Virus record (IMG/VR): IMGVR_UViG_3300033143_002040
Location: 35,712-99,711 of that record
DNA: 64,000 nucleotides
Strand: one strand, 5' to 3'
DNA from: a virus
Taxonomy: Duplodnaviria; Heunggongvirae; Uroviricota; Caudoviricetes
Below the pieces are notes generated by a model that saw nothing but the letters and a program-made list of their open reading frames with translations, was not told where the DNA came from and ran no database searches. Positions 4,455 to 64,000 of the stretch are shown here, piece after piece; within the stretch, counting starts at the first letter, position 1, and each line of letters opens with the position of its first letter. Position numbers and translations under genes: made by a program.

Positions 4455-4696
4455 TGAATTCTATAGACTTTTGTTATTGGCTACAGGGCCATTTTGAAAT
4501 TAGTGAAACAACTGAATTGAATGAAAAGCAAGTTGAAATTATCAAGAATCATTTAAACCTTGTGTTCAAGCATGAGATTGATGGCATCTATGAAAAGGAT
4601 GAATTACAAAAGATACATGACGGCGGCACGGGTGGGCCAGGCGAGTTTACCCCGACGGTGCACACTTCACCAAACGATATAAAAATAAGATGCTAA
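4454..4696 (+). CDS. hypothetical protein (80 aa)
   Basis: ATGA-coupled to upstream ORF. Confidence 0.45.
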   Translation: MNSIDFCYWLQGHFEISETTELNEKQVEIIKNHLNLVFKHEIDGIYEKDELQKIHDGGTGGPGEFTPTVHTSPNDIKIRC

Positions 4697-45413: not shown

Positions 45414-46106
45414 TTAACTCCTAGTCTTCTCATTTATTTTCTGTGATGTCCAACCCTTAAATCCTTTGTGGACTGATTGGAAGGGTAAATTATTGTCTCT
45501 ACAATATTTACGTAAATTTTTAATCTGTGCTGTCTTGCCTTGTGGATCTGTGACGAGCCAATTACATGCTAATTTTTCTGCTTGTTTTTGTCGGGCTATT
45601 TTATTTTGTGACAGCAACCTAGCATTCTCACCAAATATTTTTCTCGCGTTGTCTGTAATAACACGCGATTTCCACGCTTCTTTTAATGCTTCTCTATGTG
45701 CTTCACTTTTTGGCTTGCCTTTTAAGGATGCAGAACGTTTAGCCTTTATAGCATCCGCATATTCTTTTCCATATCGTTCTTCGTATGTTTTTCCTTTGTA
45801 CAATACAGACATATTTTTTGCATGTTTTTCTCTCAACCATGCATAAAGTATATTACCTGTGCGTTCTTTCTGTTTCCCAGATGTCATCCTGTGTGCTGCA
45901 AATATAAGTTTTCTATTGTGAGGATATATCTTTACAAGCAGTAAGTGAGCTACATAATGTTCCCTTGCAGTCAATATTGAAATATTGCTAGGATCATCGC
46001 CACCGCCCATACACTTCGGAACGATATGATGTCTCTCAGTATATCCATCAAGCACACGATCTTGCGTTCTCTCATTCAGCCTGTTATAGTGTTCTATATA
46101 ATTCAT
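45414..46106 (-). CDS. HNH homing endonuclease (free-standing, copy 2) inserted in the tail-fibre operon
   Basis: HHIVPKCMGGGDDPSNISILTAREHYVAH; ~60% identical to the 20254 copy over the first 75 aa. Confidence 0.8.
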   Translation of the reverse strand: MNYIEHYNRLNERTQDRVLDGYTERHHIVPKCMGGGDDPSNISILTAREHYVAHLLLVKIYPHNRKLIFAAHRMTSGKQKERTGNILYAWLREKHAKNMSVLYKGKTYEERYGKEYADAIKAKRSASLKGKPKSEAHREALKEAWKSRVITDNARKIFGENARLLSQNKIARQKQAEKLACNWLVTDPQGKTAQIKNLRKYCRDNNLPFQSVHKGFKGWTSQKINEKTRS

Positions 46107-46880: not shown

Positions 46881-49800
46881 TTAGGGTGAAAGGGAAATTG
46901 GCAATGCGTTGCCTTCTTCTAATTGTATAAATGCTGCTGCTACTGTAGTTGCTGCATTCAATCCACCTGGGAGTGCCCTATCTAGTACCCAAGTCACACC
47001 GTAGTTTTCACTGATTCTGCCTTCTTCATTAATAATATCTCCGCTTAAGGCAAGAACTACGCCTTCAAGATTTGTAGTTACTGAAATCTGTGCGTTGCCA
47101 TCGCCGGCGCCAGAGATAGTGAATGCTGCGCCGCCTGGAGTATACCCCGTGCCTCTGTCTACAATAGTCACATATAATATGCTGCCATCATCGTAGACAC
47201 CACCAACTTCTAGTACTGCCGGTGTTGCTGATGGGCCTAGTGCACCTTCAAGGGATGCTACTGATATAGTATCTCCGACTGAATATCCTGTGCCAGCTAT
47301 ATCAACAGTAATTATGCTAACTTCACCAGAAGCAATAAGGTCTTTAATGAAATATGAATTTTGAATTTGTGAATTAAACGCTGTTGTGACACGCAATGTA
47401 TCACCAACTACTACACTATCAGTAGTAACAAATGTTGTTTCTACAACATCAGCAAAGTGTACATTACCGTTGCCATTATTAATCCATATGCCGCCTGTAG
47501 CTGCGCCTGATTGATATGATGTTGTCGCACTATTAACCCAATAGATACTTGAAGCTGGAATTACTTGATCTGTGCCGCCGTCAAATACTTTCGATGCTAT
47601 TTGATGAGTTTGTGCGTGTGTACCTTGTGTCCCACGTACCACGCCAGTTAGTTGATTAGCGCCGACATTAACACCATGATATTCAATGCGTTCTGTACCA
47701 ATCCAAGCTATTTGTGGATCATCTAGTGTTGGAGTTGTTGAATACAAATTCGTCACTAAGGTGACTGGAATCAAATTATCAGTCAGTCCAAGTGTTGCTG
47801 TTAATGCTGTGCTTGCACCATCCGCATAACGATGTGAAGTTAAATTCTGTTGCGTATCATGATGGATACGATATGACAATGCTGTTAGCGTAAACGTTGC
47901 ATTGACACCAGACGCATCTGCTGTTGTTGCAAATGGACTCGTTGGATATACAAAGTAATCACCTTGATTTGTTACTGTAAATGTAGCTATTGGGCCAGGA
48001 GGTCCTGACGATGTTGTTACAACATCTATTGTGAGTGGCGATCCAAAATCATCTTCGTTATTAGTATCAGGAGTAATTGAGAATCCTGTTGCTACAACTG
48101 GAGGATCTAATGGTACAAACTGCGTAATAGATATTTGAGACAAGATAGTAGCTGACTGGAATCCGAGTCCGCTAGCAGTTGTAACTGTGAAGTCAGTAAC
48201 ATCTCCGTTAACGTCAACTGCATCAACTGTAACTGTTGTTTGGTCAGTCATTGTAATAATGTCGCCTACAACATACGCTGTGCTTCCGACAGTAAGCGTA
48301 GCTGTTGTATCTTCTGTATTAGTTTTAACTGCATCATTTATAGATAGCGTAATGACTGTAGCTGTTACATTAACAATAGTATATGTACCATCATTCTCAC
48401 CTAGGTTCTCTGAACCTGTAATAATAAGTTTCTGTCCAGAAGCAAATCCTAACGTATCAAACGCTGTGCCGCCAGTACGAGTAATTGTATCTGAAGTGTT
48501 TGATCCGTCAAACGCAAGACTTTGACTGACTACTGGAGCAACACGAATAACTTCTGCACCATCACCGCTTGTGAATGTTCCGTTGCTACCAACACCATCA
48601 AAATCAGTTTCATCTTGTGCTGCAATTGTTGTTTGTAGTCTGACACCGCCCGTAGCTGTTAGTGTTTCACCTACAGCATATCCTGTTCCTGCTACCGTGA
48701 GAACAATGTCTGTGCTATCAGCAATAACAATCAGATTCTCACGAGGATCTAGCGGTACCATTTCTTCTGAAATACCTGCAGTAACTTGCGGATTAATAAG
48801 ATCACCAGCTTCAATGTATGTAAAGATTTGAATATTATCTGTTCCCGTAGATGGTGCTCCGAATGTTCTGAATCCAGTTACATCTTTTACTGATACAAAT
48901 GTTAGTGTTGTTCCTATAAAGAAGTAATCAACATTAAGCACTTGCTCAATATCGTCTACAACAACAAACATGAAGAACGTTGGTACTGTAGATAAGATTT
49001 CAAATTCTTTCGTGCTACTGTTACCACTAAATGTTTCTTCTGATGGAATATTTGCAAACGTTCCTTGAGTTGTATTTGCCGTTCCTGTTGTCAACACAAA
49101 CCCTATACCTGCATCATTAGATGATGCTTGTAAAATTGGGTCGCCGGCAATAATGAATGCCGTACTACCGCCAGTAAGTGTAAAGCCAGTGACAACACCT
49201 GCTGCCACAACATCAACGGTAATATTAGAACCGTTATTACTACTCGGACCATCTTGCATAATGATTGTATCGAATCCTGCTAGCTGTGCAGTAGTGTCTG
49301 GAGGTGTCGAAGTATTGACTAATACATCTGAGGTAGATAATGTAATAACAGTAGCAGTAACATCAACGATAGTATATGTACCATCATTCTCGCCTGTATT
49401 TTCAGATAGCGTTACAATAAGTCTTTGACCCACTGTAAATTCGCCAGCTGTATTAAACGCCGTACCATCTGTACGCGTAATCGTATCTGCGCCACCTACT
49501 AATGCGAATGTTAACCCTGATGTATAATCATTAGATCCTGTATTCGCTTTGTATCCTGAGCCGCCAGCGAATGAACCATTCGGGAACACGCCGTCATAAT
49601 TAGATTGCGTGCTGCCAGGAACAGTAGTTGTCAAGTCATCAGGTGAGCCGTCAAGTGTAGTAACACTCGGATCATTAACTGAAGACTCGAATCCAATTTG
49701 ATCCCACGGAGTTGTATCGTGAGGTACTGATGATCCATTCTCAAAGACTAGTGCTGTTAACTGTGCACCAGATCCTGATCCACCTAGTAGATCAACTGGA

Positions 49801-52800
49801 TCTATTGTTGGAGTTTGGATATATGAACCGCCATCAATTAAATCAAGTGCTGTAATAACTGTACCAGCTTCTGCGCTTACGCGGAACTGTGCGTTACTAA
49901 CGGGCGTACCTGATCCTGCATCAAGTTGTAATATATCTCCTACTACATAACCTGAGCCACCATCAAAGAGTGTATAACTTCCTAATGTAGGCAGACCACC
50001 GAAAGATGTATTCTGTAAGAATGATCCTTGATAGTCAAAGAAGAACTCTGATGTGATAGCAGTATTAATTAATGCTACAGCTTCAAGCTCCTCTGTTGTA
50101 GTTGGATTGCCGTTCTGGGCAGGGTCAAATTCTGCAAGCGTTGTACCCGTATTAGGAAGCGGTGTTTCTAATACATCTATTGCTGTTCCGTTTATATATC
50201 CGCTACCAGAGTTACTTATGAATAGATTTGTTATGACTCCTAAAATAATGTCATATGTGATTTCACCTGTTCCGTTGCCGCCGCCCGCTGTAGACGTAAG
50301 AGTAAGTGTAACTCCTGTGTCATTTGTATAACCTGTGCCGCCAAATCCAGGAGTTACTATGTTCACAGATACAAGTTGTCCGCCAGCTACATCAACAGTA
50401 ATATCTGCTGTGATGCCTCCTGTAGGTGCTTGAATATCTGCAAGTTCTGTACGATAATTATTAACTGCTCTGCCTGCTGCACCTAGACGTACAAAAACTG
50501 TACCATTGTCTAATGTTGAGTATCCTTTGTAAGAACTGCTCTGACTGTTTTCGAACTTAGCAATACGCATTTCTGTAACACTCAAGTCACCACCACGAAT
50601 TTGATCGTACACCATAAACGATGTTATAGTGCGAGACTGTTCTGTTGCTTCGCCCTCAGCTAGATCAAGTTCTGTTGCGCGAGTCACACGGAAGTCACGT
50701 ACCTTTGTTTGATACGGCTTAGCTTCTGTGATATACTCTAGCGCACTATCGAACGGATCTTCTTGGAATACACGAGGTTGTGATAATGTTTGTCCTGTTT
50801 GATCTAGGAAGATATATGTTGATTTGAATGCCCAATCAAGATCATCCTGTTCACTAAAGACATAGTTCAACATAGCAAAATATACTAAGTTGTTATTCAC
50901 AACTAATTCATTCACAAATACTTCTGTTTCTATCGCTAGTATAAGTTCACGCAATTCAAGTGCGGTTGCTAAAGATTGATCGGTTGTGTAAATTGTACTC
51001 AATAGATTCAGCCTGCTTGCTTCACGCATAATCAATGTGTATAATTCTGTGTCAGAGCTATACTCATACAAACTAAATCGCGTTCCTATTACTTTTACAA
51101 TATCTCCATCAAGCGGATTAAGTAGCAACACTAAATCACTAGTATCATCTACTTGTCGAATTGGAGATGAGTTAGTCTCATCAAATCCTTCGAGGTACCA
51201 ATCTACCCATTCCCAAAGATCATTAGTGGATAGTGTTGCATTCCATAGTGGATTTTCGTCACGTAGAATAATGCTTTCTGTTAGTTGATTTATTTTATCT
51301 ACATATACTCGTCGTGCATCAAAGATGTCAAAGAACATAGTCTGCATAGGTCGTGTACGTATACCTAATTGATTTGCTGCACTCAATGTTGGATCAGGTA
51401 CAACTAAGTATCCCATAGTTGGATCTGCTGCTGTTGGCAATGCATTGTTAAAGTTATTCAATGCAAGACTCTCAACAGTCAACTTGTGAACTTCTGGCAA
51501 TAGTGGTAATGCTGGAGTTGCTACCGAAGCTATATTTACTCTAGTAGCTGGGTTCGGCACACCGAACAATGGATTAGCTTGGCGTGCTTGGCTATGTACA
51601 TATACCGATGTAGAATCTATTACTTCTATATAATACATAACACCATCTGTTAAACCGATAGTATCAATGCCGCCTGCCTTAGAATAGCGCGCACCATTGC
51701 CATTAGAGAATCCGTGTTCTGCTTTAAACGTAATAGCTTCTGTTCCGCTATCTATACCAGACGTATCTGTTGCTCCAACTGGATCAGTATTGAATTCTCC
51801 AATATCATCTGTATATGCTTCTGTACCAATTGGTATCGGAACAGTATATCCTACAAGAGAATCAACCGTCTTGTCCCAGTGTATATTATTAATAACGTAG
51901 CTAGGATCATTCTCACGACCTAACTCCCATTCAACGTGTGTTGGTCGTTCATCATCACTACGGCGGAAGTTAATTTGGAATACGTTATCACTATCTGTGA
52001 ACACTCCGTCCACACCAGAGAACATGAAACCTGACTGACTAACTGGGCTGAACCATTGATATAGATTAGCTGCTGGATTGCTAATAATACTTGCAACTTC
52101 AAATGCAGCGATTGTTCTATTAACACCACCTGGAATTTCTGTGCGATCCTTGACCCAGAAGTAATAATATGTAGCTACTCTTTCAAGAATCGGATCCCAC
52201 TCTTGTAATTCAGTGTAATTAGTTAAGCTACGTACTATTCCGTCACCCGTGTATGCAGTTGGCAGACTTGTACTACGTGTCCATTCATAGACATCCACAC
52301 TTGATCCTGAGAATAATTTGCCCCAATTATCTCTGCGGTATTCATCAGTACCTTGCTCGTAATGTAGATATGCACTTGTGCTTTGATCCCACCATAGCAA
52401 GCCAACTTGATCACCGTCAAAGGCTAAGTCTGCGCTAACTAGTTTAGCTGCATCGTCTACTGATGCATTAGTGTATCGTGCAGGATCACGTTGACTCTTC
52501 CATGTAATGTTTAGATCAGCAGTACCTGGGATAATTCCCTTGAACGGATCATAAACTGGGATTTGAGCTAGTGTATCCTTAGTATCATTCTCATATACAA
52601 ATGCATTTTCAAATTTATATGTTTCAATGTATTCTGCTTCTATGCGTAATGCATTATACGAATATAATACTCCAGCAGGTGACTTAATGACAGATGGTGA
52701 AAGTACATGCTCGAATCCACCGTTACGAATAAGATCAGTAGGTGTTACTCGCAAATAGCCTCGCTCGCCTTCTGGGAAACCTGTTCCGCCAAAAATGTCT

Positions 52801-55800
52801 GTTATTGTCCAGAATCCATTATTGCTATCAGATATGATTTCAACAAGATCACCAATATCAAATATTGCATCAAAGTCTACTGCCGCAGAGTTATCAACAA
52901 TTGTTTCTGCTGCTGCGGTTTCAGTAATAGAAATCTCCATTGAATCATCATCTGCATTAGTAGTAGTCAATGACGTTGAGAGGGTAATAACTGTTGAGGT
53001 GACAGTAAGAATATCATGTATGCCATCATTACCTGCGTCTTCAGAATTACTTATTGTAATTTCTTGAAGTGCTACAAAAAATCCAGGATCATCAAACGGC
53101 GTGCCATCTGTTCTTGTAATTGTATTTGCGCCACTGTCAATCGCTAGCCCTGCGCCACCACCTGCCCCACCAGTTGCATTCCAGTCGTTTAATGCTATGA
53201 ATGCAGTTTGCTTACTTGCTGGAACATCAGTACCAAGAATACTTGAACCAGAGCCAATCGACAATGATTCATCTAAGAAAAGACCAACTGCAGGTGTTGC
53301 TGTAGTAATAAATTCACTAGCTGTCCATACTGTATTTAATGCTGCGCCTGTTATTGTACTTGCAATTGTTTCAGATACTAATGTATCATCTGCTATCAAA
53401 GTAATTACGAATGGTTCAACACCGCTCGTTGCAATAGTATATGTACCATTGTTAGATACTGTACCTGTAATAGTAATCGTTTGTCCCTCAAAGAATCCTT
53501 CTGAAACAAACGTAGATGAGCCGCCTGTACGTGTTATCGTATCAGGGTTGTCATCTGCGAATATTAGTGTCGCTGCATCAGATGTAGTGACTGGGCTGTT
53601 TTCACCATCAGTCCAAACAATTAGATCATTCAGTGTTACATTATCTACGTCTAATGATTGTGACCCGAATAGAGCTAATGTTGATTCAAAGATTCTACGC
53701 TCCCCGATTGTACGGAAACGCAAATTCATTAACGTAAAGTATTCTGTATCATCTGCAAGAATGTTATCCTCAATAGGTTCACCGTCCTTGCTTAAGGTAT
53801 AAGTTGAACCACTGACAAGTACATAGTCATACAAAACATTGTTTGCATAAATTTGTCCTTCGTTTCTAATTGAGTTGCCCATGTAGCGACGCCAGCCTGT
53901 AGGTTCTATAATATCATCAGAACTAACTACAATGCCATCATCAAAGAATGTCAAGTCAACAGTAGCTCCTGTGCCTCCTGAAGGAAGAACTGTAGTAGCT
54001 GCGCCTGATGCAGTTGGCAGCGATGCATCATTTGAGTATTCGCCGCGTGTTGTAATCTCTACACTAAACACTTCTTGATTAAGTCTTCCTAGTGTTAGTG
54101 AGAAGTTTACACCTGTACCGTCTGAGCTTGCTTGCGCAATTGTATCTAGGTCAGTTGTAATACCTGCTGTCGTTGCAGTAGTTACTGTGAATTCAGAAAC
54201 AATACCTGTTGTGGGCGTTACTTGTACGTTGTCTACATCTAGTGTTAGTGTGAAGCCTGCTCCGCCCGAAGGTGGTGCTTGTCTAGGTGCTAACACTTCA
54301 TTATTAAATATTGTTGTAACTGTACTAGCAGAGATAATTTGGAAAGCAGTAATTGGTGCGCCAACTACTGGTGTAACAAACGGATCACCTGCGCCTGTGA
54401 CTTGTACAACAGTACCGTCTGACATTGTTATTATATCGCCAATGAGATAATCAGTACCTGCTGTGAATGTACCTTCTGTCGTTGGAGAGTTATCAAAGTC
54501 TGCTTCAGTTTGCAATGCAATTGTTGATACAGTTGCATTGTCTACAGTAATAGTAGAGCCATCTGTTAACGTAATTATATCCCCAATGTCGTGACCTGTG
54601 CCGCCTGCAAACGTACCTTCATCTAATGTTACACCATCGAATAATAGATAAGTTTGTGAAGCTATTGTAGCTACTTCATCAACTGTCAATGTTGCACCTA
54701 CTCCTGTACCACCGACTACTGTTAATACATCATCTATGCTATAGCCTGTTCCACCTGCTGCTACTGTTACTGTATCAATAGTAACGTAGTATTCAGAACC
54801 TGTTGAACCTACTTTAACATTTGCTGTTGCAATACTACCGAAAGCATCAACTTGATACTCAATGATTGCATTGCCGTTGCTAGATGGTACTGTGTTTGAT
54901 GTAATAGTAAACTCTGCATCTCTAGTATAACCGAAGCCGCCACCAATAACTGTTACTGCCTCGACTACTTCGCCGTCTACATCAATTGTGAACTGTGCTT
55001 CGATCAAGTCTTCACGAGGAATACTTGTTAATGTTACAAGACCATCGTCTTCTGCTGCAGGAGTTTGCGTTAGTGTAGCACCTATTCCTAATAGATCACT
55101 ACCGCTTTCTTCGTTTGCAATTCCTGGAGTTAGTGTAAAGTCATTGTTACCTAGACCATTCGATGATGCTGTTGTTAATGTTGTGTCCGCACGCGCTGCG
55201 AATGATGTTTGACTCGCTAATGTAATATTAAACGTTACTACTGCGCCACTAGAAACAGTATTTACTGTGACTTGTGTACCATCGCTAAGAGTAATAATCT
55301 CTGTAGCAACATATCCTGTGCCGCCAAAGAATGTACCATTCGGACTTACGTTATCAAAGTCTGTATTAACTTGTCCAAGTATAGTAGAACCCTTATAGCC
55401 ATCAAGTCCATACACGCCAAATTCTTCGCGTGCATCGCGTGCCACCCAGATCGTCTGACCGTGCTTGCTTGGAACCGTTGCTGCTGTAGCTAATGAATCA
55501 ACATCAGCCTCAGAGAATGATTGGAAGTTAGCATCTTCACTGTGTACATAGCCTGCGTTCGTAGTATTATATGTATCTAATACATCATCAGGCCATACCT
55601 CGCCTGCAACGTCACATGCAACACCACCTGGTTTTGTAATCCAGCGTGTCTCATCATCAATGTCAATAAGAATTGCACCATTTGATGGATCATCTGTAGC
55701 GACATCAAAGCTAATACGTGCCGTTGCTCTATCTGCTAATGCGGATATAACTGGCAAGCCTATTGCAACTTGTGGCGGTTGACTGTAACCAGTACCACCT

Positions 55801-58800
55801 GTCAATATATCAATACGCAATATCGAACCATCTGTGTCTAAGATAGATACTGCTGTAGCACCTGAACCTGTTGTATCGTCAGGATGATTAGTAATGAATA
55901 CAGTTGGCGCAATTGTATATGTATTAGCTGCGCTAACAAGATCAATCTCTGTAACTACACCTGTTGGGAATGCAGTTAATGTATGCGCAGTACCAACGCC
56001 AGTGCTTGTCAAGTCGATGTGAATTGGCGTAACTGATGTTGCATCTGATTTTGTTAATGCGAATTGGAATCTATCCTCATCAATTACAATGATATAGTAT
56101 TCTGTATCGTCAAGTAGTCCGCCAACAACAGTGCCGCCACCTGCACTATATGTCTTAGGTGCGCCGCTTCTGTAATTGTGATTATCAATCGTTACTAGAT
56201 CACCACGAACTCCGTCAGGATCGTCATCCGTAACTGTAACATCATCTACGCTATCGAATGCATAAGTAGGCGGAACTGATTCTGTTGCAGGGTATGCGAG
56301 TTGAACCAACTGTGGATCAACTTTAACTTCATCTGCTGCAATCAAGAACTCTGTAAAGTTATTAACACATACTGCACCAAAGCTATCGAGTCTCAATGCC
56401 CATTCTTCAATGATAGTTAGATCATTGTCAATGTCTGTAACAAGTTTGTTACGCTCCATCTTCTCAACAGCTTGTCGTGTACCCTTCTGTCGAACCATAC
56501 CCTGATAGAACTGATACTGTGCATCATCTAGAATACCTAGATCAGTAAAGTAATCGCGCTCGTCAAAGCCGATTAAGTGACGCGCAGTTTCTTCAATAGC
56601 AGGATTGTCTAGTACGACTTCTGTATTGTGATAGTTACGAATACTGTCTACCATGTTCTCATAGTTAGGTAGCAAACCGTTAGCTGTAATAATGAATCCT
56701 GCAGCTTCAAGCTTACCTGTCCATTCGCGAGTACGACGACCTCTAAAGTCTAGTCGTGCTAGTCGTGAACCAAGAACTGGATCGTACAATGTATCGTTGA
56801 ACACAGTTACGTTATCGAATGTAACGATGTTCTCTGTTTCGCGAGTGATCGCATGTAAACCATAGATACCTGTCTGTTCTATATCAGGCTCTAGTTCTAT
56901 TCTGCGATCTACACGATTAATGATTGTATTGATAGGATCAATAGCAACACCATTCTTATCTAGAACAGCGTATACACCATTGATGACTTGCTCTACATTA
57001 TCAACATAACCTTCTTGAGCTATAAGTATAGCCTTCTCTGCCATCGGAGATAACTGTATAATAGAGTTTTCTTCCCATTGAGTACCTACCCAGAACAAGA
57101 AGTCCTTTGCTGCTTGTACCCAGTTGTTAATTGTATTGTTAGCTGAGTTGACTGTTTCGAACGTCCAACCTGCATTCGTTTGTGCTTCGCCTAATCCTAC
57201 TAAGAAATCGAAGACTTCCTGAACACCATTAAATTTATGGCCGTATGGAATTGCGACTTCTGAATTTGCACCAGTTACCTTGTAGGTAGCACTCACACCT
57301 CCAGTGATTGGAAGTTTGTTTAGCTTCAACCATTTGTCAGCTTCAAACGTATCTGCTTGATGCGCTTCTATACAACGATAGAATATACCATTTAGTCTAG
57401 CAATCATACCTAACATATATGAAGTACCAATTGCAAACTGAATGAATGTCTCAGGCTGACCACCTACTGTTACGTCTTGATCTGCTGCTGATATAACTCG
57501 CGGAACTATAATGAACTCGGCCGCCGTAACATCGTAGCCAAATACTTGATACTGGTCATCAGCTAATGCACGAACAAGCGCGCCACTGTATACATAGTCT
57601 GTAACTGGCGCGCCTGTGTACAATGCTACGTCAATGTTCTCTGCTGGCACAAGTAAGTTACTTGCTTGCGAAGTAACACTGATACCTTCTACGAACACTT
57701 TCATAGTATCTTTGTTAGTAAACGCGGCCATCTTGTGGCCGAGCTTAACGTCTAGTGTACGAAGAAGGTTTCCGAAGTCTACTGTAACATCTTTCTTCAA
57801 TGACTTAAGCCGACCAGCAATCCATACTTGATAACCAGTCTGTATCTGAGCCACGCCACTCACTACTTCACCGTGTACGTATAACGTACTGTTTCCTATA
57901 CGTTTAAAGATACCTGCATCACTAGATACAATCTGTTCATTGTCAACTGGCACTTCATAAATATGTTCTGGATCCCAAAACTTCTCACCGAACTCACCTG
58001 GTCGAGCAAGAAACAATGCTTCTGCTACTGCGAACGGGAATGATTCCGATGTTTCCCAAGCATACTCTACTGGTGCTTTATCAGTCCAGTCATAATCTGC
58101 AGCCGCATCACTAGCACTCGGATCTACCAAGCTTGCGGACGCGTCGATACAAAGCAAAGGCGAAGCCTTTAAAGCGCCGAGGACATCTACAGGAAGATGA
58201 TCCGCAACTAAGTCCGTCCTAGCATAACGTGTATCAACGTATCCTAACACGATTTCTTCCGTAGCTATATCTACTTGACGCCTTACATACCCATTCTCAA
58301 GATCACTCCACATAGCATTAGTTGACACATAAGGAGCAGAGCCATAGCCTGTGAAGTTATCTCCAAACAAAGCTAACTCTTCCGCACCATCATCACCAAC
58401 TAATAATGCTGTACTCTCCCACCAATCAGGTATAGCAGAGAAACCTAGCATCTCCCATGGAGTAGTATCAGGTGTCTGTGAGTCGTAATAGTAATCGAAT
58501 ATACCTCTCCAATAACCTGGCAGCAACTCACCATCTACATCTACTACTGTCTTATAGTTCCAAGTGAATGGATCTAATGCATCATAATAACCATTAGTAA
58601 TGTAATCAGCTTTATTTGACGATACCCACTTATAGAAAGACTGTTTAATCAAGTCTTGTAACTCACTTAGCTCCCATCGTGTAGAACGGAACTTACCAGG
58701 CTTATACGTATCCATTTCCAAAGGTATCGTGTAATTTTTTCGGAACCCTTCTATAATACCATTGTATATACGTGTCTCAAACTCTAGTAGTAATTCATCT

Positions 58801-61800
58801 ATAATACTATTATAAACTGGTGTACGAGAACCATCATGTCCTAGTATGAACTGAGTGGAATTAGCATATGTATCATCTGTGATAATAGCTGGAACCACGG
58901 CTGTATAGAGTCCTAATTTAGTAGGAGTCGCAGGAATGTGTGCAGCCGAAGATTCTCCAAAGAGGCGCATGACTATGCTCGCACCTACCGATGGTGGAGT
59001 TGTCATTGTTATTTGGATTGGGTTAAGATTTGTTATTGTATAATCTTTTCCAACCGCCTGTAAAATTTCATCAATGTAAACATATAATACATTTCTTTTA
59101 TCTTCTAGGTCAACGAAGTCTGTTGTGCTGTATATGAGTGTAGCCCCTGTACCCACGAATACTGTCTCTTGATACACAGTGTTCCACGCTATCATGTACG
59201 TATCATTGAACGCTGTGTCATACTCGCGTGCCCTAATGATGCGACGTATAGCCTCGTCTACCCATTCGCTTACGGGTATCTGATTGCCTAACTGTTGAGG
59301 GGTAAAGCCTTCCTTGACTAACTGTATGCCTACCCTTATGAACTTATTCTTATAGCGTGTGTACTCATTAGATGATAGACGTAATGCCTCTACTATGTCT
59401 AGCTCATCAGTGGATGTGCATAGCATTGTCTTGATGAGTGGGCTTTGGTTCTGTAGTATGAACGTACCCAGTGAGCCATCTTTGAGTGTGTCTCTATAGT
59501 TATTACCTGCACCGAACGCTGTGCCTTCATACACAGCCTGCTCAGTGATGATAGATGTATAGTGAGGGGTGAACTCATTCCATGATTGTTCTAGGACTTC
59601 TAAGTTGTTAGGGTTGTTCTCTAATGCATTAGGTATCTCAAAGTATCCTAAGTCTTCGTCTGCTATTGCATCGAAGGTGTAGGTGAGTAACTCTACTACT
59701 GCGCCTTCGCCAGGTGCGCCTGATGCTTGCTGGCGGGCTAAGATAGCTGCGCTTACTATTGGTGCAGTAACGAATGTAATGACTGTGCCTGTTGATGCAT
59801 CTTGTGATACTATGATATAATCTGTGAAGGCATTGCTTAAGTCTGTGCCTAGGGTTTGATACAGTCCATCAATGTATACTTCAAAGTCTTCGCTGATTGA
59901 TGAGAAGGTGTAGCCAGCTTGGGTACCTGTGCCAGCCGCTGATTCATCATTGGTTGATCGTGCTAATAGTTTCATACTATTAGTCTCAGGTATGTAAGCG
60001 AACTCAGATGTATTCAAACGTCTGCCTTGTGTTACAACAAAGTTAGCTGGGCCAGAGACTTGATCGACTGGCCCACCGCTTATTGGGAATGTGTTTTCAT
60101 CGTCTGTTGTAGTTAAGAATCTATCTATAACTCTTAACTCCTCTGGTGCAGTAGATGATTGCCAATTAGTCTCAAAGCTTGAGCCTAGGATGGTACAATC
60201 AGCAGGCGCAGTATCAAACACCTTGAAGAAATAGTAGCCTACTATCTCTGTGGTGGCTGAGCCAGTTGGAGTGTAATCGACTCGATCTGTCTCGAGGTCG
60301 TTCTCAAAGATAACATCTCCCAGTTCTCTAAAGCCTTTGGTCTCTAGTGGAAATCCAAGAACTGGATCATCAGTAAGGGAACCACCTCCCTGCTCTGTAA
60401 GTCGTTGTTGTGTAAGGACTTTATATGAGTATATCTCATTGCCTATGAAAGTGGAAACAGGGTAAGCTGTTGAATCGTCTAGGGTTATTCCATCTCCATC
60501 ATACAGACTGAATAGTGGCTGCTGGTTAGCCGCATCTTTGCTCTGTGCTAGCTCCCACGTGTAAGTCACTGTTAATACATCTAATTCTTGATAGAACGTA
60601 GAGCCTTGGTAGGCGGTTCCCTCCAAGATCAATATGTTCTCTCCTATGTCTACTGTGACAGAGCTAGGGAAGATGCCTGTCTCTAGATCAATACGTTCTA
60701 GTAAGATAACGCCTGGGTTTGTAACAAGATCAACATGCCATATGAAACGTGTCAATGCGCCAGTGGCACCGCTTACATCCCATGGTGTAGTACCTGCGGC
60801 TGCAATGTGATAGCCTCTCAATACTGCTGCCACTGCGCCTTCTGTTACTAATGATTCTGTTGAAGCCAGCGTGATAACTGTAGAAGTAACACCAGCCGCA
60901 GCAATCTCATAGTCACCGTCATTAGATGCTGAGCCTGCAATGTTTATTGTCTGGCCAGGTGTAAAGCCTTCAGCTAAGAAGTCTACGCCACCGCCAGCAC
61001 CAGTGATCGTATCAGCCGAACCTACATCAGCAAACGCTAGTGTAGTTGCAGTCGTAGTAGTAACTGGACCCGACTCATCCCATCGTGAGCCAGTGAATGT
61101 GCCAAAGCCAGCATCAGGATCTTTATCCCACTCTTGGAACGTTGGCACACTAACAGGATTCAAGAAGATAAGTGTATCTCCGTTCACTAGTTCATGTCCA
61201 TCTACTTCTAGTCCAGAGCCAGCACCTTGGATATCACCAAAGCTTTCTGTCTCTGCTACTGCTGTTACTTCACCAATAAATCTATTGCCAAAGTTATATA
61301 GTTCAATGTCTTTTTTAAACTCTAAGATAGGCCGAGCGGCTTTGTTACTACGTGACACAGCCGAGGCAAGTATACCATCAATCAATGCGCCACTACCATT
61401 ACCAGTAACAATCGTGTTGTCATCCCATAACGTAACGCCCAACTCATTAGCTGTATCTAGTGTTAATGAGAAGCCTGTACCTGGACCTGTTGATCCTGTT
61501 TGACTCTGGGTAGTTCCTTGTGTTAAGATAAGAGAAGTACTAGACGTAGTAATAGTAAACTCAGTCACTACACCTGCCAATACATTCTCCACTTCAATAA
61601 TTGTGCCATCATCTAGTGTAACAAAGTCACCTATAACATGAGAAGCTCCACCAGCATAAGTACCATTAGGTGATACGTTATCAAAGTCCGCCTCGGTCTG
61701 CCCTAATGATGTCAAGAAGCCAGAAGCTTTAGTAGCAATGTTATTAGGATCCCACGATGAACCAAGTCCACCAACAGCCTCATTATCCCATTGCAATGGC

Positions 61801-62807
61801 TCAACAATAGCAGGTATAGATCCTGCTCCATTATGCTGTGCAAACGAATATCCAGTACCTCTTGTTAATACTCCTATGCCATCAATAACTCCACCTAATG
61901 CTATACTAGAGACAAAGAATGAACCATCAGACCCGTCACCCACATTAACTAGAAGAGGATCACCTACCTCATAGTTTAGTCCACCATCAGTAATCGTTCC
62001 ACCAAGTAACTGTCCAAGAGCCGTAATGCTATCAACTGCGTCTTCATGGAACCATCTATTACTTCTACTCCAAGGACTACCTTCACAACTTCCACGCTCA
62101 CTAGTAATGTAATCAGCTATACTTAGGTCAGCAGGCACAACACTCAAGTCTTCTACTAAGCGAATACCTCTACCAACACACTCTACATACAATGGCGTAT
62201 CATAAGATGCCGAACCTTCAAACTGTACACGCATACCTGTACTGAACTGGAAGTCTCCAGGAGTCAAGTTGGCATTATTACTAGTATTGAAGTCTGTAGC
62301 GCCAATGATGTCGCTCTCTATGAAAGTATCATATGTAGCAGCATCCCAAAGCGGTGCTTGGATGAACGCCGTAGGAGCAGTATTAGTTATGTTTGATGCC
62401 TCCAACCAGAGATAGTTTTGATAGTTTAGGAACTTATCTACATCTATCGGCGGTGCAAAGCTATAGTATAGATCACTAAACAATCTATCATGGTTGTCAA
62501 TATTGCCGCCACGATGCTCAACATAGTTTAATAGGTCTTCATAGAAGTTATGATTCGAGTCTTGCAATGCAGCATTAACCGCATAGGCAATAGGCTCAAG
62601 CTGATAAGACGCTCTGTTCTTATTAGGTTCACCTAAATAATTATCCACTGCAGGGTCTAGGACATCACTCGAACGCCTACCGATAAATCCCTGTGCCTGT
62701 TCTACATTGGCTGAATTAAATAACTGGTCAAATGTCGCAGCATAGAACTCCTTTTGGACCTCTGTCTGCAATATTGCCGGTAATTTCTTTACAAATCTCT
62801 GAATCAT
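46881..62807 (-). CDS. giant (5,308 aa) repetitive fibrous structural protein, probably a tail-fibre/baseplate-associated fibre
   Basis: 15.9-kb uninterrupted ORF; two repeated module types (DTITRTGG...GQxIxIxGSxxNDGTYTIxxVTxTVITL x5; FDNVSPNGTxxGGxGY...GDIITLxDGTxxxV x6); many GTGY motifs; heads the minus-strand tail-fibre operon. Confidence 0.85.
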   Translation of the reverse strand: MIQRFVKKLPAILQTEVQKEFYAATFDQLFNSANVEQAQGFIGRRSSDVLDPAVDNYLGEPNKNRASYQLEPIAYAVNAALQDSNHNFYEDLLNYVEHRGGNIDNHDRLFSDLYYSFAPPIDVDKFLNYQNYLWLEASNITNTAPTAFIQAPLWDAATYDTFIESDIIGATDFNTSNNANLTPGDFQFSTGMRVQFEGSASYDTPLYVECVGRGIRLVEDLSVVPADLSIADYITSERGSCEGSPWSRSNRWFHEDAVDSITALGQLLGGTITDGGLNYEVGDPLLVNVGDGSDGSFFVSSIALGGVIDGIGVLTRGTGYSFAQHNGAGSIPAIVEPLQWDNEAVGGLGSSWDPNNIATKASGFLTSLGQTEADFDNVSPNGTYAGGASHVIGDFVTLDDGTIIEVENVLAGVVTEFTITTSSTSLILTQGTTQSQTGSTGPGTGFSLTLDTANELGVTLWDDNTIVTGNGSGALIDGILASAVSRSNKAARPILEFKKDIELYNFGNRFIGEVTAVAETESFGDIQGAGSGLEVDGHELVNGDTLIFLNPVSVPTFQEWDKDPDAGFGTFTGSRWDESGPVTTTTATTLAFADVGSADTITGAGGGVDFLAEGFTPGQTINIAGSASNDGDYEIAAAGVTSTVITLASTESLVTEGAVAAVLRGYHIAAAGTTPWDVSGATGALTRFIWHVDLVTNPGVILLERIDLETGIFPSSVTVDIGENILILEGTAYQGSTFYQELDVLTVTYTWELAQSKDAANQQPLFSLYDGDGITLDDSTAYPVSTFIGNEIYSYKVLTQQRLTEQGGGSLTDDPVLGFPLETKGFRELGDVIFENDLETDRVDYTPTGSATTEIVGYYFFKVFDTAPADCTILGSSFETNWQSSTAPEELRVIDRFLTTTDDENTFPISGGPVDQVSGPANFVVTQGRRLNTSEFAYIPETNSMKLLARSTNDESAAGTGTQAGYTFSSISEDFEVYIDGLYQTLGTDLSNAFTDYIIVSQDASTGTVITFVTAPIVSAAILARQQASGAPGEGAVVELLTYTFDAIADEDLGYFEIPNALENNPNNLEVLEQSWNEFTPHYTSIITEQAVYEGTAFGAGNNYRDTLKDGSLGTFILQNQSPLIKTMLCTSTDELDIVEALRLSSNEYTRYKNKFIRVGIQLVKEGFTPQQLGNQIPVSEWVDEAIRRIIRAREYDTAFNDTYMIAWNTVYQETVFVGTGATLIYSTTDFVDLEDKRNVLYVYIDEILQAVGKDYTITNLNPIQITMTTPPSVGASIVMRLFGESSAAHIPATPTKLGLYTAVVPAIITDDTYANSTQFILGHDGSRTPVYNSIIDELLLEFETRIYNGIIEGFRKNYTIPLEMDTYKPGKFRSTRWELSELQDLIKQSFYKWVSSNKADYITNGYYDALDPFTWNYKTVVDVDGELLPGYWRGIFDYYYDSQTPDTTPWEMLGFSAIPDWWESTALLVGDDGAEELALFGDNFTGYGSAPYVSTNAMWSDLENGYVRRQVDIATEEIVLGYVDTRYARTDLVADHLPVDVLGALKASPLLCIDASASLVDPSASDAAADYDWTDKAPVEYAWETSESFPFAVAEALFLARPGEFGEKFWDPEHIYEVPVDNEQIVSSDAGIFKRIGNSTLYVHGEVVSGVAQIQTGYQVWIAGRLKSLKKDVTVDFGNLLRTLDVKLGHKMAAFTNKDTMKVFVEGISVTSQASNLLVPAENIDVALYTGAPVTDYVYSGALVRALADDQYQVFGYDVTAAEFIIVPRVISAADQDVTVGGQPETFIQFAIGTSYMLGMIARLNGIFYRCIEAHQADTFEADKWLKLNKLPITGGVSATYKVTGANSEVAIPYGHKFNGVQEVFDFLVGLGEAQTNAGWTFETVNSANNTINNWVQAAKDFLFWVGTQWEENSIIQLSPMAEKAILIAQEGYVDNVEQVINGVYAVLDKNGVAIDPINTIINRVDRRIELEPDIEQTGIYGLHAITRETENIVTFDNVTVFNDTLYDPVLGSRLARLDFRGRRTREWTGKLEAAGFIITANGLLPNYENMVDSIRNYHNTEVVLDNPAIEETARHLIGFDERDYFTDLGILDDAQYQFYQGMVRQKGTRQAVEKMERNKLVTDIDNDLTIIEEWALRLDSFGAVCVNNFTEFLIAADEVKVDPQLVQLAYPATESVPPTYAFDSVDDVTVTDDDPDGVRGDLVTIDNHNYRSGAPKTYSAGGGTVVGGLLDDTEYYIIVIDEDRFQFALTKSDATSVTPIHIDLTSTGVGTAHTLTAFPTGVVTEIDLVSAANTYTIAPTVFITNHPDDTTGSGATAVSILDTDGSILRIDILTGGTGYSQPPQVAIGLPVISALADRATARISFDVATDDPSNGAILIDIDDETRWITKPGGVACDVAGEVWPDDVLDTYNTTNAGYVHSEDANFQSFSEADVDSLATAATVPSKHGQTIWVARDAREEFGVYGLDGYKGSTILGQVNTDFDNVSPNGTFFGGTGYVATEIITLSDGTQVTVNTVSSGAVVTFNITLASQTSFAARADTTLTTASSNGLGNNDFTLTPGIANEESGSDLLGIGATLTQTPAAEDDGLVTLTSIPREDLIEAQFTIDVDGEVVEAVTVIGGGFGYTRDAEFTITSNTVPSSNGNAIIEYQVDAFGSIATANVKVGSTGSEYYVTIDTVTVAAGGTGYSIDDVLTVVGGTGVGATLTVDEVATIASQTYLLFDGVTLDEGTFAGGTGHDIGDIITLTDGSTITVDNATVSTIALQTEADFDNSPTTEGTFTAGTDYLIGDIITMSDGTVVQVTGAGDPFVTPVVGAPITAFQIISASTVTTIFNNEVLAPRQAPPSGGAGFTLTLDVDNVQVTPTTGIVSEFTVTTATTAGITTDLDTIAQASSDGTGVNFSLTLGRLNQEVFSVEITTRGEYSNDASLPTASGAATTVLPSGGTGATVDLTFFDDGIVVSSDDIIEPTGWRRYMGNSIRNEGQIYANNVLYDYVLVSGSTYTLSKDGEPIEDNILADDTEYFTLMNLRFRTIGERRIFESTLALFGSQSLDVDNVTLNDLIVWTDGENSPVTTSDAATLIFADDNPDTITRTGGSSTFVSEGFFEGQTITITGTVSNNGTYTIATSGVEPFVITLIADDTLVSETIASTITGAALNTVWTASEFITTATPAVGLFLDESLSIGSGSSILGTDVPASKQTAFIALNDWNATGGAGGGAGLAIDSGANTITRTDGTPFDDPGFFVALQEITISNSEDAGNDGIHDILTVTSTVITLSTSLTTTNADDDSMEISITETAAAETIVDNSAAVDFDAIFDIGDLVEIISDSNNGFWTITDIFGGTGFPEGERGYLRVTPTDLIRNGGFEHVLSPSVIKSPAGVLYSYNALRIEAEYIETYKFENAFVYENDTKDTLAQIPVYDPFKGIIPGTADLNITWKSQRDPARYTNASVDDAAKLVSADLAFDGDQVGLLWWDQSTSAYLHYEQGTDEYRRDNWGKLFSGSSVDVYEWTRSTSLPTAYTGDGIVRSLTNYTELQEWDPILERVATYYYFWVKDRTEIPGGVNRTIAAFEVASIISNPAANLYQWFSPVSQSGFMFSGVDGVFTDSDNVFQINFRRSDDERPTHVEWELGRENDPSYVINNIHWDKTVDSLVGYTVPIPIGTEAYTDDIGEFNTDPVGATDTSGIDSGTEAITFKAEHGFSNGNGARYSKAGGIDTIGLTDGVMYYIEVIDSTSVYVHSQARQANPLFGVPNPATRVNIASVATPALPLLPEVHKLTVESLALNNFNNALPTAADPTMGYLVVPDPTLSAANQLGIRTRPMQTMFFDIFDARRVYVDKINQLTESIILRDENPLWNATLSTNDLWEWVDWYLEGFDETNSSPIRQVDDTSDLVLLLNPLDGDIVKVIGTRFSLYEYSSDTELYTLIMREASRLNLLSTIYTTDQSLATALELRELILAIETEVFVNELVVNNNLVYFAMLNYVFSEQDDLDWAFKSTYIFLDQTGQTLSQPRVFQEDPFDSALEYITEAKPYQTKVRDFRVTRATELDLAEGEATEQSRTITSFMVYDQIRGGDLSVTEMRIAKFENSQSSSYKGYSTLDNGTVFVRLGAAGRAVNNYRTELADIQAPTGGITADITVDVAGGQLVSVNIVTPGFGGTGYTNDTGVTLTLTSTAGGGNGTGEITYDIILGVITNLFISNSGSGYINGTAIDVLETPLPNTGTTLAEFDPAQNGNPTTTEELEAVALINTAITSEFFFDYQGSFLQNTSFGGLPTLGSYTLFDGGSGYVVGDILQLDAGSGTPVSNAQFRVSAEAGTVITALDLIDGGSYIQTPTIDPVDLLGGSGSGAQLTALVFENGSSVPHDTTPWDQIGFESSVNDPSVTTLDGSPDDLTTTVPGSTQSNYDGVFPNGSFAGGSGYKANTGSNDYTSGLTFALVGGADTITRTDGTAFNTAGEFTVGQRLIVTLSENTGENDGTYTIVDVTATVITLSTSDVLVNTSTPPDTTAQLAGFDTIIMQDGPSSNNGSNITVDVVAAGVVTGFTLTGGSTAFIIAGDPILQASSNDAGIGFVLTTGTANTTQGTFANIPSEETFSGNSSTKEFEILSTVPTFFMFVVVDDIEQVLNVDYFFIGTTLTFVSVKDVTGFRTFGAPSTGTDNIQIFTYIEAGDLINPQVTAGISEEMVPLDPRENLIVIADSTDIVLTVAGTGYAVGETLTATGGVRLQTTIAAQDETDFDGVGSNGTFTSGDGAEVIRVAPVVSQSLAFDGSNTSDTITRTGGTAFDTLGFASGQKLIITGSENLGENDGTYTIVNVTATVITLSINDAVKTNTEDTTATLTVGSTAYVVGDIITMTDQTTVTVDAVDVNGDVTDFTVTTASGLGFQSATILSQISITQFVPLDPPVVATGFSITPDTNNEDDFGSPLTIDVVTTSSGPPGPIATFTVTNQGDYFVYPTSPFATTADASGVNATFTLTALSYRIHHDTQQNLTSHRYADGASTALTATLGLTDNLIPVTLVTNLYSTTPTLDDPQIAWIGTERIEYHGVNVGANQLTGVVRGTQGTHAQTHQIASKVFDGGTDQVIPASSIYWVNSATTSYQSGAATGGIWINNGNGNVHFADVVETTFVTTDSVVVGDTLRVTTAFNSQIQNSYFIKDLIASGEVSIITVDIAGTGYSVGDTISVASLEGALGPSATPAVLEVGGVYDDGSILYVTIVDRGTGYTPGGAAFTISGAGDGNAQISVTTNLEGVVLALSGDIINEEGRISENYGVTWVLDRALPGGLNAATTVAAAFIQLEEGNALPISLSP

Positions 62808-63033
62808 TCCCTTTTTATTCCTTTTTTATTCTCGTCTCCACCGTCCCTAAAGTTATGGAAACAGCGTAATAGTAGCTATTAATAACTAAAACCCATCACT
62901 AGTTGCACTAGTGATATAAAGCCTTCATTTGTAGCATAATTATCATTCTTAAACCCTTGTATAGCTTCATTCTTCTCTACTATTCTTTTATACTGCTTAA
63001 CTGTTCATTATATAAGACACTAGTGATTCTTAT

Positions 63034-63162
63034 ATCGTAATAGTGGTAAAAAATCACTCTCGATACTTCTCTCTTGTAAAACCCACTGAACGGTCATCAT
63101 TTAGTGTTGTTAGTGTATTATTAAATCGTAATACTGGTAAAAATCACTCTCGATACTTCTCT
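63034..63162. repeat. two ~39-bp direct repeats (ATCGTAATAsTGGTAAAAATCACTCTCGATACTTCTCT) upstream of the giant gene
   Basis: copy 1 63034-63072, copy 2 63125-63162; 1 mismatch + 1 indel. Confidence 0.8.
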
Positions 63163-63411
63163 GTATGTGTACATTTTACCATTCTAAATCCTCTGTATCG
63201 AAAAAACGTCCTACCACTCTCTACGTCAACTATAGCTTCATTGTTACTTTTTCTGCGTGTTTAAAAACATTCTTATATCGTATTCGGGACTATTTTTGCC
63301 TCCCTATTATCTCACTCACTTACACTCAAATACATCATACAATTTAGTACTGTTGTGAATAGTTACTACAGTCAAGCCTACAAGTAGAGTTGCATGAGTG
63401 AATATAGTATC

Positions 63412-63531
63412 TCATAGGATATAAGTATCAAATCCATATGCTGCTAGTGTTACTACTATTACCATTACGAACGGCCATGCGTATACTCTTACGCTGCCGA
63501 TCATCCAACTTTTAGTTTCACTTAATTTCAT
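63412..63531 (-). CDS. small TM peptide (39 aa), ATGA-coupled to the upstream gene
   Basis: MKLSETKSWMIGSVRVYAWPFVMVIVVTLAAYGF. Confidence 0.35.
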   Translation of the reverse strand: MKLSETKSWMIGSVRVYAWPFVMVIVVTLAAYGFDTYIL

Positions 63532-63776
63532 CTTGTTTCTCCATAACTTGGTTCGTGATCGTTGCCTAGTGCATTGTCGTGTCCTAAGCTGTCGCGACTT
63601 CGTGACCATTGTTCATATGCTTTCTTCCAGCTTCCGTCGTACCAGTTATCTGTTGTACCATCGTTCAGTCCGTTTTGATAACCAGCGTGAAAGGCTTCTT
63701 GTTCATAAGATAGAGTGTCTTCGTTAATGTTCTCTAGCTTTTCCATTAAATCTTTCATATCTATTTGCTTGTTCAT
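63528..63776 (-). CDS. hypothetical protein (82 aa)
   Basis: ORF, acidic/aromatic. Confidence 0.4.
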   Translation of the reverse strand: MNKQIDMKDLMEKLENINEDTLSYEQEAFHAGYQNGLNDGTTDNWYDGSWKKAYEQWSRSRDSLGHDNALGNDHEPSYGETR

Positions 63777-64000
63777 ATTATATCTCTGTCTATTCTTTAT
63801 GGTTTGTGAAGCTTGTCTTAGCTAGTTCGTATACTATTTCGTCGGATTCTTTATCGAGTGTTGCGCCTTCTATGTGGCATTCAGTAGTTGTGTACATGTC
63901 GTTATTACTATCTGTGATATGTATGCAGCAAGGTTGATTACTCTCTACACATCCTTTTACGTTTCTTATGTCTACGCAGTCTAAATTAGCAGAATAGATG

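Follow-up and report, generated by a model that had tools for sequence, protein, structure and literature searches.

A giant gene within the 64,000-nt stretch of DNA analysed here (the window: positions 35,712 to 99,711 of IMG/VR virus record IMGVR_UViG_3300033143_002040, Caudoviricetes) encodes a 5,308-aa protein in which a small domain, termed module B, occurs five times. Taken together, the data suggest that module B is an autonomously folding small β-barrel of about 65-75 residues, and that its five copies were added in cassette fashion to three lineage-variable regions of a virion protein homologous to gp355 of phage PA5oct, where they would decorate or extend the virion surface. The probability of this reading is put at about 0.65. 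Positions refer to the window throughout, and residue numbers (aa) to the giant protein.

All of the modules are carried by a single minus-strand open reading frame (ORF; 46881-62807), as seen in the ORF list and its translation. The window derives from a jumbo phage, and its other PHROG matches include a DNA polymerase, an exonuclease and an RtcB-type tRNA-splicing ligase. Both halves of the giant protein match phrog_10938 ('virion structural protein'), with E values of 1.8e-269 and 4.6e-89, and tblastn showed its conserved core to be 41% identical to a protein of a PA5oct-group Pseudomonas jumbo phage and the protein to be 28-32% identical to proteins of Atu_ph07, SCTP-2, CBB and Rak2-like phages. 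The PA5oct homologue, gp355 (3,857 aa), carries a note of detection by electrospray ionisation tandem mass spectrometry in its record, and its gene is found in the order baseplate hub/lysozyme gene, gp25-like wedge gene, large gp6-like wedge gene, gp355, gp10-like gene. Because of this mass spectrometric detection and the placement among baseplate genes, the window protein is taken to be a virion component. Judged by the PA5oct neighbourhood, it would be baseplate-associated and located at the position of T4 gp7; no sequence match supporting a likeness to gp7 was found when aa 1-600 and 1037-2175 were searched against the PDB sequences (phmmer, E<=1). The window also has genes resembling PA5oct gp357 to gp359, which lie downstream of gp355 in that phage. 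An initial interpretation made from the DNA letters alone (the sequence-only reading) had treated the gene product as a fibre. No fibre family was found in Pfam, PHROG and NCBIfam scans of the giant protein, and fibre identity is not demonstrated for this homologue of a virion protein confirmed by mass spectrometry and encoded in a baseplate gene cluster.

Comparison of the window protein with gp355 by BLAST revealed that the two are collinear in eight conserved blocks of 27-44% identity (window aa 8-258, 479-549, 686-913, 1037-2175, 2279-2459, 3387-3656, 3802-4054 and 4945-5081). Lineage-specific repeat modules account for most of the 1,451 aa by which the window protein exceeds gp355, which itself has no module B. 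Indeed, all five copies of module B fall between the shared blocks, that is, in the lineage-variable regions. Copy 1 is located between blocks 479-549 and 686-913, copies 2 and 3 lie in a stretch of ∼930 aa (aa 2459-3387) for which gp355 has only about 107 aa, and copies 4 and 5 are both contained in the last variable region of the protein. Megablast of the gene against 50,697 phage records gave no match, and there is no close relative among IMG/VR contigs, the best being only 41% identical. Moreover, literature searches on PA5oct and gp7 returned no description of the repeats in this gene.

The five peptides that the sequence-only reading had picked out as repeats are all exact substrings of the translation, at aa 592-649, 3082-3137, 3224-3276, 4435-4490 and 4765-4821 (positions 60861-61034, 53397-53564, 52980-53138, 49338-49505 and 48345-48515), and each of their ends had been located to within 14 nt. 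As full domains, all on the minus strand, the copies extend over aa 587-662 (copy 1; 60822-61049), aa 3079-3152 (copy 2; 53352-53573), aa 3222-3291 (copy 3, the most divergent; 52935-53144), aa 4429-4506 (copy 4; 49290-49523) and aa 4761-4837 (copy 5; 48297-48527). Identity between pairs of copies is 32-56% over ∼80 aligned residues, or 38-62% in a trimmed domain alignment, and 16 columns are invariant across all five (T, I, T, G, F, G, F, Q, N, G, I, V, V, I, T, L). A self-BLAST of the full-length protein gave the identity match only, and overlapping fragments were compared instead.

In order to judge the similarity statistically, a hidden Markov model (HMM) built from four copies was scored against the fifth. 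In this leave-one-out scheme copies 1 to 5 reached 52.8, 42.4, 40.2, 78.9 and 70.5 bits respectively, against a best score of <=9.4 bits in 200 shuffles of the whole protein within 100-residue windows. In addition, an external-only profile, made from 55 domains of unrelated proteins, recovered exactly the five sites (68.0, 63.2, 30.2, 50.8 and 53.3 bits for copies 1 to 5; shuffle maximum 3.8). The five copies are therefore homologous and form a discrete, domain-sized module, as the sequence-only reading had proposed, and the alternative it had itself named, that the resemblance is nothing but compositional bias, carries a negligible probability even in a protein rich in T, G, V, A and S that holds several other repeat types. 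A relaxed scan of the protein gave no significant sixth copy; a degenerate candidate following copy 3 (aa 3291-3338, 'FDIGDLVEIISDSNNGFWTITDI') scored 2.0 bits, inside the shuffle noise, and was not accepted.

Copies 1 and 2 share a longer unit of ∼105 aa with a Trp motif on each side. The flanks are 'RWDESG...' before copy 1 (61068-61079) and '...PWDVSG' after it (60771-60782), and 'VWTDGE...' before copy 2 (53601-53615) and '...VWTASE' after it (53313-53327). These motifs are kept in P0021, the closest orthologue of the giant protein (see below), and have only 5-7 nt in common at the DNA level. They may represent a host hairpin or an insertion footprint.

Module B belongs to a large family without a match in the curated libraries that were searched. 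When 1.84 billion cluster representatives were searched exhaustively with a profile, 3,187 proteins were matched at E<=1e-3, 834 of them at E<=1e-10; a word-indexed homologue search with the module alignments fell far below this, with only 6 short matches per run. The best 147 matches have a median of 4 copies and at most 16, mostly spaced 60-120 aa apart, and 54 of these proteins are longer than 2,000 aa. The consensus of 651 instances (..ltF......DTITRs.GSW..DGF.aGq.ItVsGs..NDGtYtIasV....LTL.....L..E.) contains signature residues that are also found in the window copies, namely TITR, G, an aromatic residue, GF, GQxI, N(D/N)GxYxI and (I/L)TL. At the position occupied by W in 78% of the family the window copies carry F, and in copy 1 the R is replaced by G. 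Neither the window protein nor any of 16 scanned carriers (ten plus six) reached a curated Pfam cut-off, the scans yielding faint matches only, to other small barrels (Phage_attach, Dna2, NifZ and DUF3104). No NCBIfam model covers module B, its profiles have no significant match among PDB sequences, and a full-text literature search found its motif strings in no paper. In PHROGs, the C-terminal half of the module weakly matches phrog_1236 ('head protein') and phrog_584 ('major tail protein').

The distribution of the family was explored further with a degenerate DNA motif for DTITR..GSW..DGF, which was scanned over species-representative genomes and IMG/VR. In the genomes 94 stretches were matched, mostly in metagenome-assembled genomes of Planctomycetota, Desulfobacterota, Anaerolineales and Myxococcota, with isolates from Bradyrhizobium, Marinobacter, Desulfobulbus and Youngiibacter. 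Nearly all of these matches are within ORFs that are open across the whole 8-kb locus, with <=18 copies. Two bacterial carriers also hold LktA_tand_53 filament repeats by NCBIfam: L109 (Youngiibacter multivorans), in which there are 21 such stretches, and L058 (Marinobacter orientalis), which has a LEPR-XLL domain in addition. Pfam gave no match in these giant carrier ORFs or in that of a further locus, L143. Because of the long open ORFs and the co-occurrence with LktA_tand_53 and LEPR-XLL, the bacterial carriers resemble giant proteins of the surface or filamentous type and are apparently extracellular. In IMG/VR the motif was matched in 43 stretches, where the carriers are mostly proteins of 250-840 aa with one or two copies, some of them matching PHROG tail, baseplate or virion-structural families. 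Among cultured phages the sole tblastn match was to the major tail protein of Stenotrophomonas phage A1432, and since residues 102-164 of that protein match the profile at 34 bits this is taken to be another nested copy.

Two further carriers were observed in these surveys. A family of ∼655-690 aa with two tandem copies of module B (at about aa 270 and 350) recurs in viral contigs (IMG/VR loci L152, L157, L158, L162, L163, L167, L168, L173, L175, L179, L183 and L186) and in bacterial contigs (genome loci L064, L078, L098 and L105), the latter of which are probably prophages; this family has no PHROG or Pfam match. A 105-aa 'stand-alone' module B protein, P0002, is encoded on a chromosomal contig beside rpsP-rimM-trmD-rplS, where overlapping ORFs lacking annotation suggest a giant gene broken up by frameshifts.

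The fold of module B was predicted using AlphaFold2. From an 11-sequence alignment, copy 5 was modelled as mostly β-structure with one short helical turn, at a predicted local distance difference test (pLDDT) score of 76.3 and a predicted template modelling score of 0.68. In a model of the 201-aa composite formed by copy 5 and the sequence on either side of it, module B folds in the same way and is the only long stretch at pLDDT 70-88 (mean for the composite, 53). The predicted fold matches closed barrels in tail tube inserts, riboflavin synthase and E1, as well as the barrels of F1-ATPase and helicases. It also resembles the β-barrel domain of the phi92 endosialidase and the barrels of depolymerases, tailspikes and GH110 enzymes, and one BFVD fold match is named 'Endosialidase, beta barrel domain'. 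At moderate model confidence, module B is best described as a generic six-stranded small closed β-barrel. This speaks against the β-sandwich suggested by the sequence-only reading, and the whole giant protein is without a Pfam match to Ig, FN3 or BACON.

What such a barrel might do on a virion can be approached through its conservation and its carriers. What is conserved over the 651 instances consists of glycines, residues of turns (N, D, G) and an alternation of hydrophobic or aromatic residues typical of a core. Bacteria appear to use module B mostly as beads in tandem arrays within giant proteins, and in phages it is present as one or two copies per protein, among tail-tube, tail, baseplate and virion proteins. 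Given the core and turn character of the conserved residues, the bacterial tandem beads and the phage tail, tube and baseplate carriers, module B is most likely an outward-facing decoration or extension unit, by analogy with the immunoglobulin (Ig)-like accessory domains of phage structural proteins. Projecting from the virion surface, the domains would tune reach and spacing, or provide weak, non-specific adhesion to the host envelope, and would possess neither catalytic activity nor a conserved specific receptor-binding site.

The strongest competitor to a decoration or extension role is that module B is a specific carbohydrate- or receptor-binding module, akin to a carbohydrate-binding module (CBM), so that the five copies would confer multivalent binding to host glycans. 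Its fold resemblance to the barrels of the phi92 endosialidase, depolymerases, tailspikes and GH110 enzymes, including the endosialidase-named BFVD match, is in keeping with this idea, as are the likeness of the bacterial carriers to surface filaments and two further features of the giant protein. A sub-threshold Pfam match to CBM_5_12, the sole match of the whole protein at E<=1, occurs in the conserved core (aa 1792-1818, 57354-57434; E 0.0011, 19.4 bits against a cut-off of 26.2), and Pseudomonas phage vB_Pa-PAC2 has a homologue of the giant protein with the annotation 'chitin-binding type-3 domain-containing protein'. However, no CBM or End_beta_barrel model in Pfam matches the module, even at E<=1, and the matched folds are generic small barrels that include those of F1-ATPase, E1 and helicases. 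Moreover, the residues conserved across the family are those of core and turns, with no obvious conserved polar patch on the surface, and no conserved surface motif supports a sugar-binding site. Specific glycan binding is therefore considered possible, yet improbable.

A broader proposal can be set beside the decoration role, namely that module B is an undescribed and very widespread 'plug-in' barrel, able to be copied by itself into surface loops of other domains and common to giant bacterial surface filaments and phage tail or baseplate proteins. If so, phages may have taken module B from host surface proteins, or may exchange it with them, the phage copies would bind those envelope or matrix ligands that the bacterial filaments also recognise, and the number and placement of copies would be a tunable determinant of adsorption. 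At present this wider proposal is regarded as tentative, and on balance doubtful.

The arrangement of copies 4 and 5 became interpretable once a second repeat family in the giant protein had been defined. Module A, of ∼93 aa, was found by fragment-wise self-BLAST and has the pattern DFDNVSPNGTFxGGxGY..GDxITLSDGTxVxV..V..GxVTxFxIT...GFxLT. An HMM was built from the three uninterrupted copies of module A only (shuffle maximum 11.1 bits); uninterrupted modules on the minus strand include aa 366-456 (61440-61712), used as the host-module reference, and aa 2475-2568 (55104-55385). At copy 4 the matches to this HMM are split into an N-terminal part at aa 4397-4420 (HMM positions 3-26; 49548-49619) and a C-terminal part at aa 4524-4579 (HMM 34-91; 49071-49238; 19.5 bits), and at copy 5 into aa 4727-4750 (HMM 1-24; 48558-48629) and aa 4836-4919 (HMM 17-92; 48051-48302; 29.9 bits), all on the minus strand. 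As the matches are split around copies 4 and 5, module B appears to be inserted between the GGxGY and GDxITL motifs of module A, giving an A-B-A composite at each of two successive A modules. A homology between the two modules themselves was also entertained, since MAFFT repeatedly aligned the end of module A (GVVTEFTITTSS) with that of module B (GVTSTVITLAS), and was rejected on an hhalign probability of 6% over 10 columns.

Orthologues of the giant protein gave access to the history of these copies. The closest that was found, P0021 (5,034 aa), is 76-81% identical and has four copies of module B, which are positional orthologues of copies 1, 2, 4 and 5 at 73-82% identity (73% for copy 1, 77% for copy 2 and 82% for copy 4), whereas paralogous pairs are only 38-62% identical. 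It follows that every duplication took place before the window and P0021 lineages separated. Copy 3 is missing from P0021 together with a segment of ∼205 aa (aa 3167-3371; 52695-53309, minus strand), seen as a gap in the BLAST alignment, in which window residues 1-3166 correspond to P0021 residues 16-3185 and residues 3372-4130 to 3183-3935. Because copy 3 is as diverged as the other copies, its loss by the P0021 lineage is slightly favoured over a recent gain in that of the window. Three further orthologous fragments, P0157, P0158 and P0159, are 57-60% identical. At the copy-4 site, P0157 and P0158 both have an A-B-A composite, and at the copy-5 site both have a full-length, uninterrupted module A (HMM 1-91 and 1-92; 44 and 65 bits), while P0159 is without either composite. 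As far as protein sequences can tell, these comparative data settle the nesting of copies 4 and 5 within module A.

Copy number thus varies among related phages, as the sequence-only reading had suggested might be found: beyond P0021, with its four copies, more distant orthologues have one or none where the window has two. In IMG/VR, module B is absent from 42 of 46 distant homologues of the giant protein; each of the remaining four has one copy in the giant ORF, and in one of these the adjacent ORF has a copy as well. Judged from this distribution, module B is an accessory, lineage-specific addition. The copies are gained and lost as cassettes, with loops and linkers tolerating their insertion.

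The origin of copy 5 can be traced more closely. The A sequences flanking it are 79% (N-terminal part) and 45-55% (C-terminal part) identical to the uninterrupted A of P0157 and P0158, as compared with 44% and 40% to the A module that hosts copy 4. Module B of copy 5 itself is 65% identical to that of copy 4, and either is only 43-53% identical to the copy-4 module B of P0157 and P0158. That the A flanks of copy 5 are orthologous to the A of P0157 and P0158 while its module B is nearest to copy 4 points to module B alone having been copied between the sites. Most probably, therefore, a unit of ∼78 aa belonging to the copy-4 composite was copied into the corresponding loop of the A module next to it, and this took place, again most probably, after the split from P0157 and P0158 and before that from P0021. 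The sequence-only reading had described copies 4 and 5 (the two 3'-proximal ones) as much more similar to each other than to the rest, and had ascribed this to recent intragenic duplication. They are indeed the most similar pair (62-65% at the amino acid level), but their margin over copies 1 and 2 (51%) is modest and 'much more similar' is an overstatement. Likewise, an intragenic duplication does account for the pair, but it was not recent, the P0021 orthologues being 79-82% identical and the DNA of the two copies only 76%; the duplicated unit was module B alone, placed in a loop of a pre-existing paralogous module A, rather than a tandem block.

An ancestral copy-5 composite provides a different account of the same data. 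Here the whole A-B-A unit would have been duplicated once, P0157 and P0158 would have lost module B precisely, and gene conversion would have raised the similarity between copies 4 and 5. Loss is common, P0159 having lost both composites, and P0157 and P0158 are possibly sister lineages, in which case a single loss could suffice. Set against this, module B of copy 4 is 65% identical to that of copy 5 while the host A parts are 40-44% identical, although the window and P0021 orthologues (∼79-83%) show the two modules diverging at comparable rates. Copy-4 module B also resembles copy 5 more than it does its P0157 and P0158 orthologues (46-53%), and the scheme needs more events, combining a precise in-frame excision with gene conversion. 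An ancestral composite is accordingly judged unlikely, and transplantation of module B from the copy-4 site is preferred.

The sequence-only reading had also offered the modules as recombination substrates, and it might be argued that this is their main role, with unequal exchange lengthening and shortening the protein. Some of the orthologue data could be read in this way: the indels coincide with module segments (P0021 is without aa 3167-3371 and P0159 without both composites), and the module B of copy 5 was itself copied from the copy-4 site. However, at the DNA level copies 4 and 5, the best pair, are 76% identical over 97 nt with a longest near-exact run of about 20 nt, and the other pairs share only 22-38-nt stretches at 66-80% identity. 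With near-exact identity of only about 20 nt, copies 4 and 5 offer little for homologous recombination to act on at present. Moreover, copies 1, 2, 4 and 5 have remained stably orthologous between the window and P0021, the indels observed differ from the deletions between B copies that unequal crossing-over predicts, and the conservation of the family across thousands of unrelated proteins suggests that selection acts on the protein. A role primarily in recombination is thus thought to be quite improbable, and unlikely today in particular.

Returning to the cassette-borne barrel as the favoured reading, several observations weigh against one or other part of it. Taken alone, the N-terminal A fragments are at noise level (6.2 bits for copy 4 and 10.9 for copy 5, compared with the shuffle maximum of 11.1), although that of copy 4 is supported because it is collinear with its C-terminal part and because the same composite is present in P0157 and P0158. 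The A parts of the composite AlphaFold2 model failed (pLDDT 28-40 and 56-73), and since the model is uninformative for module A the nesting rests on sequence and comparative evidence. P0157, P0158 and P0159 are metagenomic fragments, and module B may instead have been lost from the copy-5 site in them. As regards placement in the virion, there is no long same-strand ORF in the 1.2 kb upstream of the giant gene, and hence no gp6-like gene directly upstream, and the phmmer search of the conserved core described above (aa 1-600 and 1037-2175, all PDB sequences, E<=1) found no match of any kind.

Among known systems, the closest to module B are the small-barrel inserts of siphophage tail tube and major tail proteins, represented by PDB entries 9n71 (Acinetobacter phage Mystique) and 9jlf_E (phage FCWL1), by phrog_584 and by A1432. 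These differ in that one copy is present in a tube protein rather than five in a giant virion protein, and the PDB sequence match to 9n71 and 9jlf_E (E 0.24) is not significant. Similarity to the End_beta_barrel family of Pfam and the phi92 endosialidase (4hiz) is one of predicted fold; the giant protein has no match to this Pfam family even at E<=1. The LktA_tand_53 and LEPR-XLL proteins, which co-occur with module B in the Youngiibacter and Marinobacter loci, have the same beads-on-a-string layout, with module B in tandem arrays of up to 16-18 copies. The phage protein differs from these in having neither LktA_tand_53 nor LEPR-XLL (NCBIfam scans of both parts of the protein) and in that its B copies are dispersed and nested, not in tandem. 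The host-protein family is that of PA5oct gp355 and phrog_10938, from Rak2-like and related jumbo myophages, of which gp355 has no module B.

Phages also carry Ig-like, FN3 and BACON accessory domains, which are small and β-rich, are sporadically gained and lost in exposed proteins, and are thought to be weakly adhesive. The evolutionary behaviour of module B is the same, but the fold predicted for it is a closed barrel as opposed to an Ig sandwich, and there is no sequence relationship. Module B is an uncurated addition to a familiar class of small β accessory domains, and entails no new mechanism or system. The giant virion proteins of jumbo phages and the giant surface proteins of bacteria are largely unannotated, and a 70-residue unit present in at least 3,187 cluster representatives provides both an annotation handle and a defined target for structure determination. 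Orthologues in which one and the same loop either carries or lacks the insert make a clean natural example of one domain transplanted into another, a neat but not revolutionary case of domain evolution, and the orthologue series also shows how the peripheries of phage baseplates diversify. Copies 3 and 5 are specific cassettes of interest in relation to adsorption and host range.

Other repeats and matches were observed in the giant protein. At aa 2715-2911 (54075-54665) one module A is nested in another, HMM positions 2-47 being matched at aa 2715-2761, a complete module A at aa 2764-2862 and HMM positions 45-91 at aa 2866-2911. This constitutes a second kind of domain-in-domain insertion in the protein, at a loop different from the one that hosts module B. 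A third repeat type has G-x-G-Y/F motifs, for example 'GGTGYSIDDVLTVVGGTG' and 'GSGYVVGDILQLDAGSG', with 18 motif sites across the protein. Two of these sites lie in aa 4131-4221 (50145-50417), and because this segment is absent from P0021 the G-x-G-Y/F repeat, too, is variable in copy number. In addition, aa 2267-2360 (55728-56009) weakly match phrog_460 'head closure Hc2' (E 9.8e-06).

The surroundings of the giant gene also differ from those of gp355. Upstream, at 62808-64000, the minus strand contains short ORFs only, in the place of the gp25-like and gp6-like wedge genes of PA5oct, and scans of this segment for promoters and terminators gave nothing above chance. Downstream, a 230-aa ORF (45414-46106, minus strand) matches homing endonuclease families (phrog_655, E 8.8e-53, plus HNH-type). 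It is positioned between the 208-aa gene that lies downstream of the giant gene and a 587-aa structural gene, a place where PA5oct has no counterpart, and probably represents a mobile endonuclease that has entered the cluster of structural genes.

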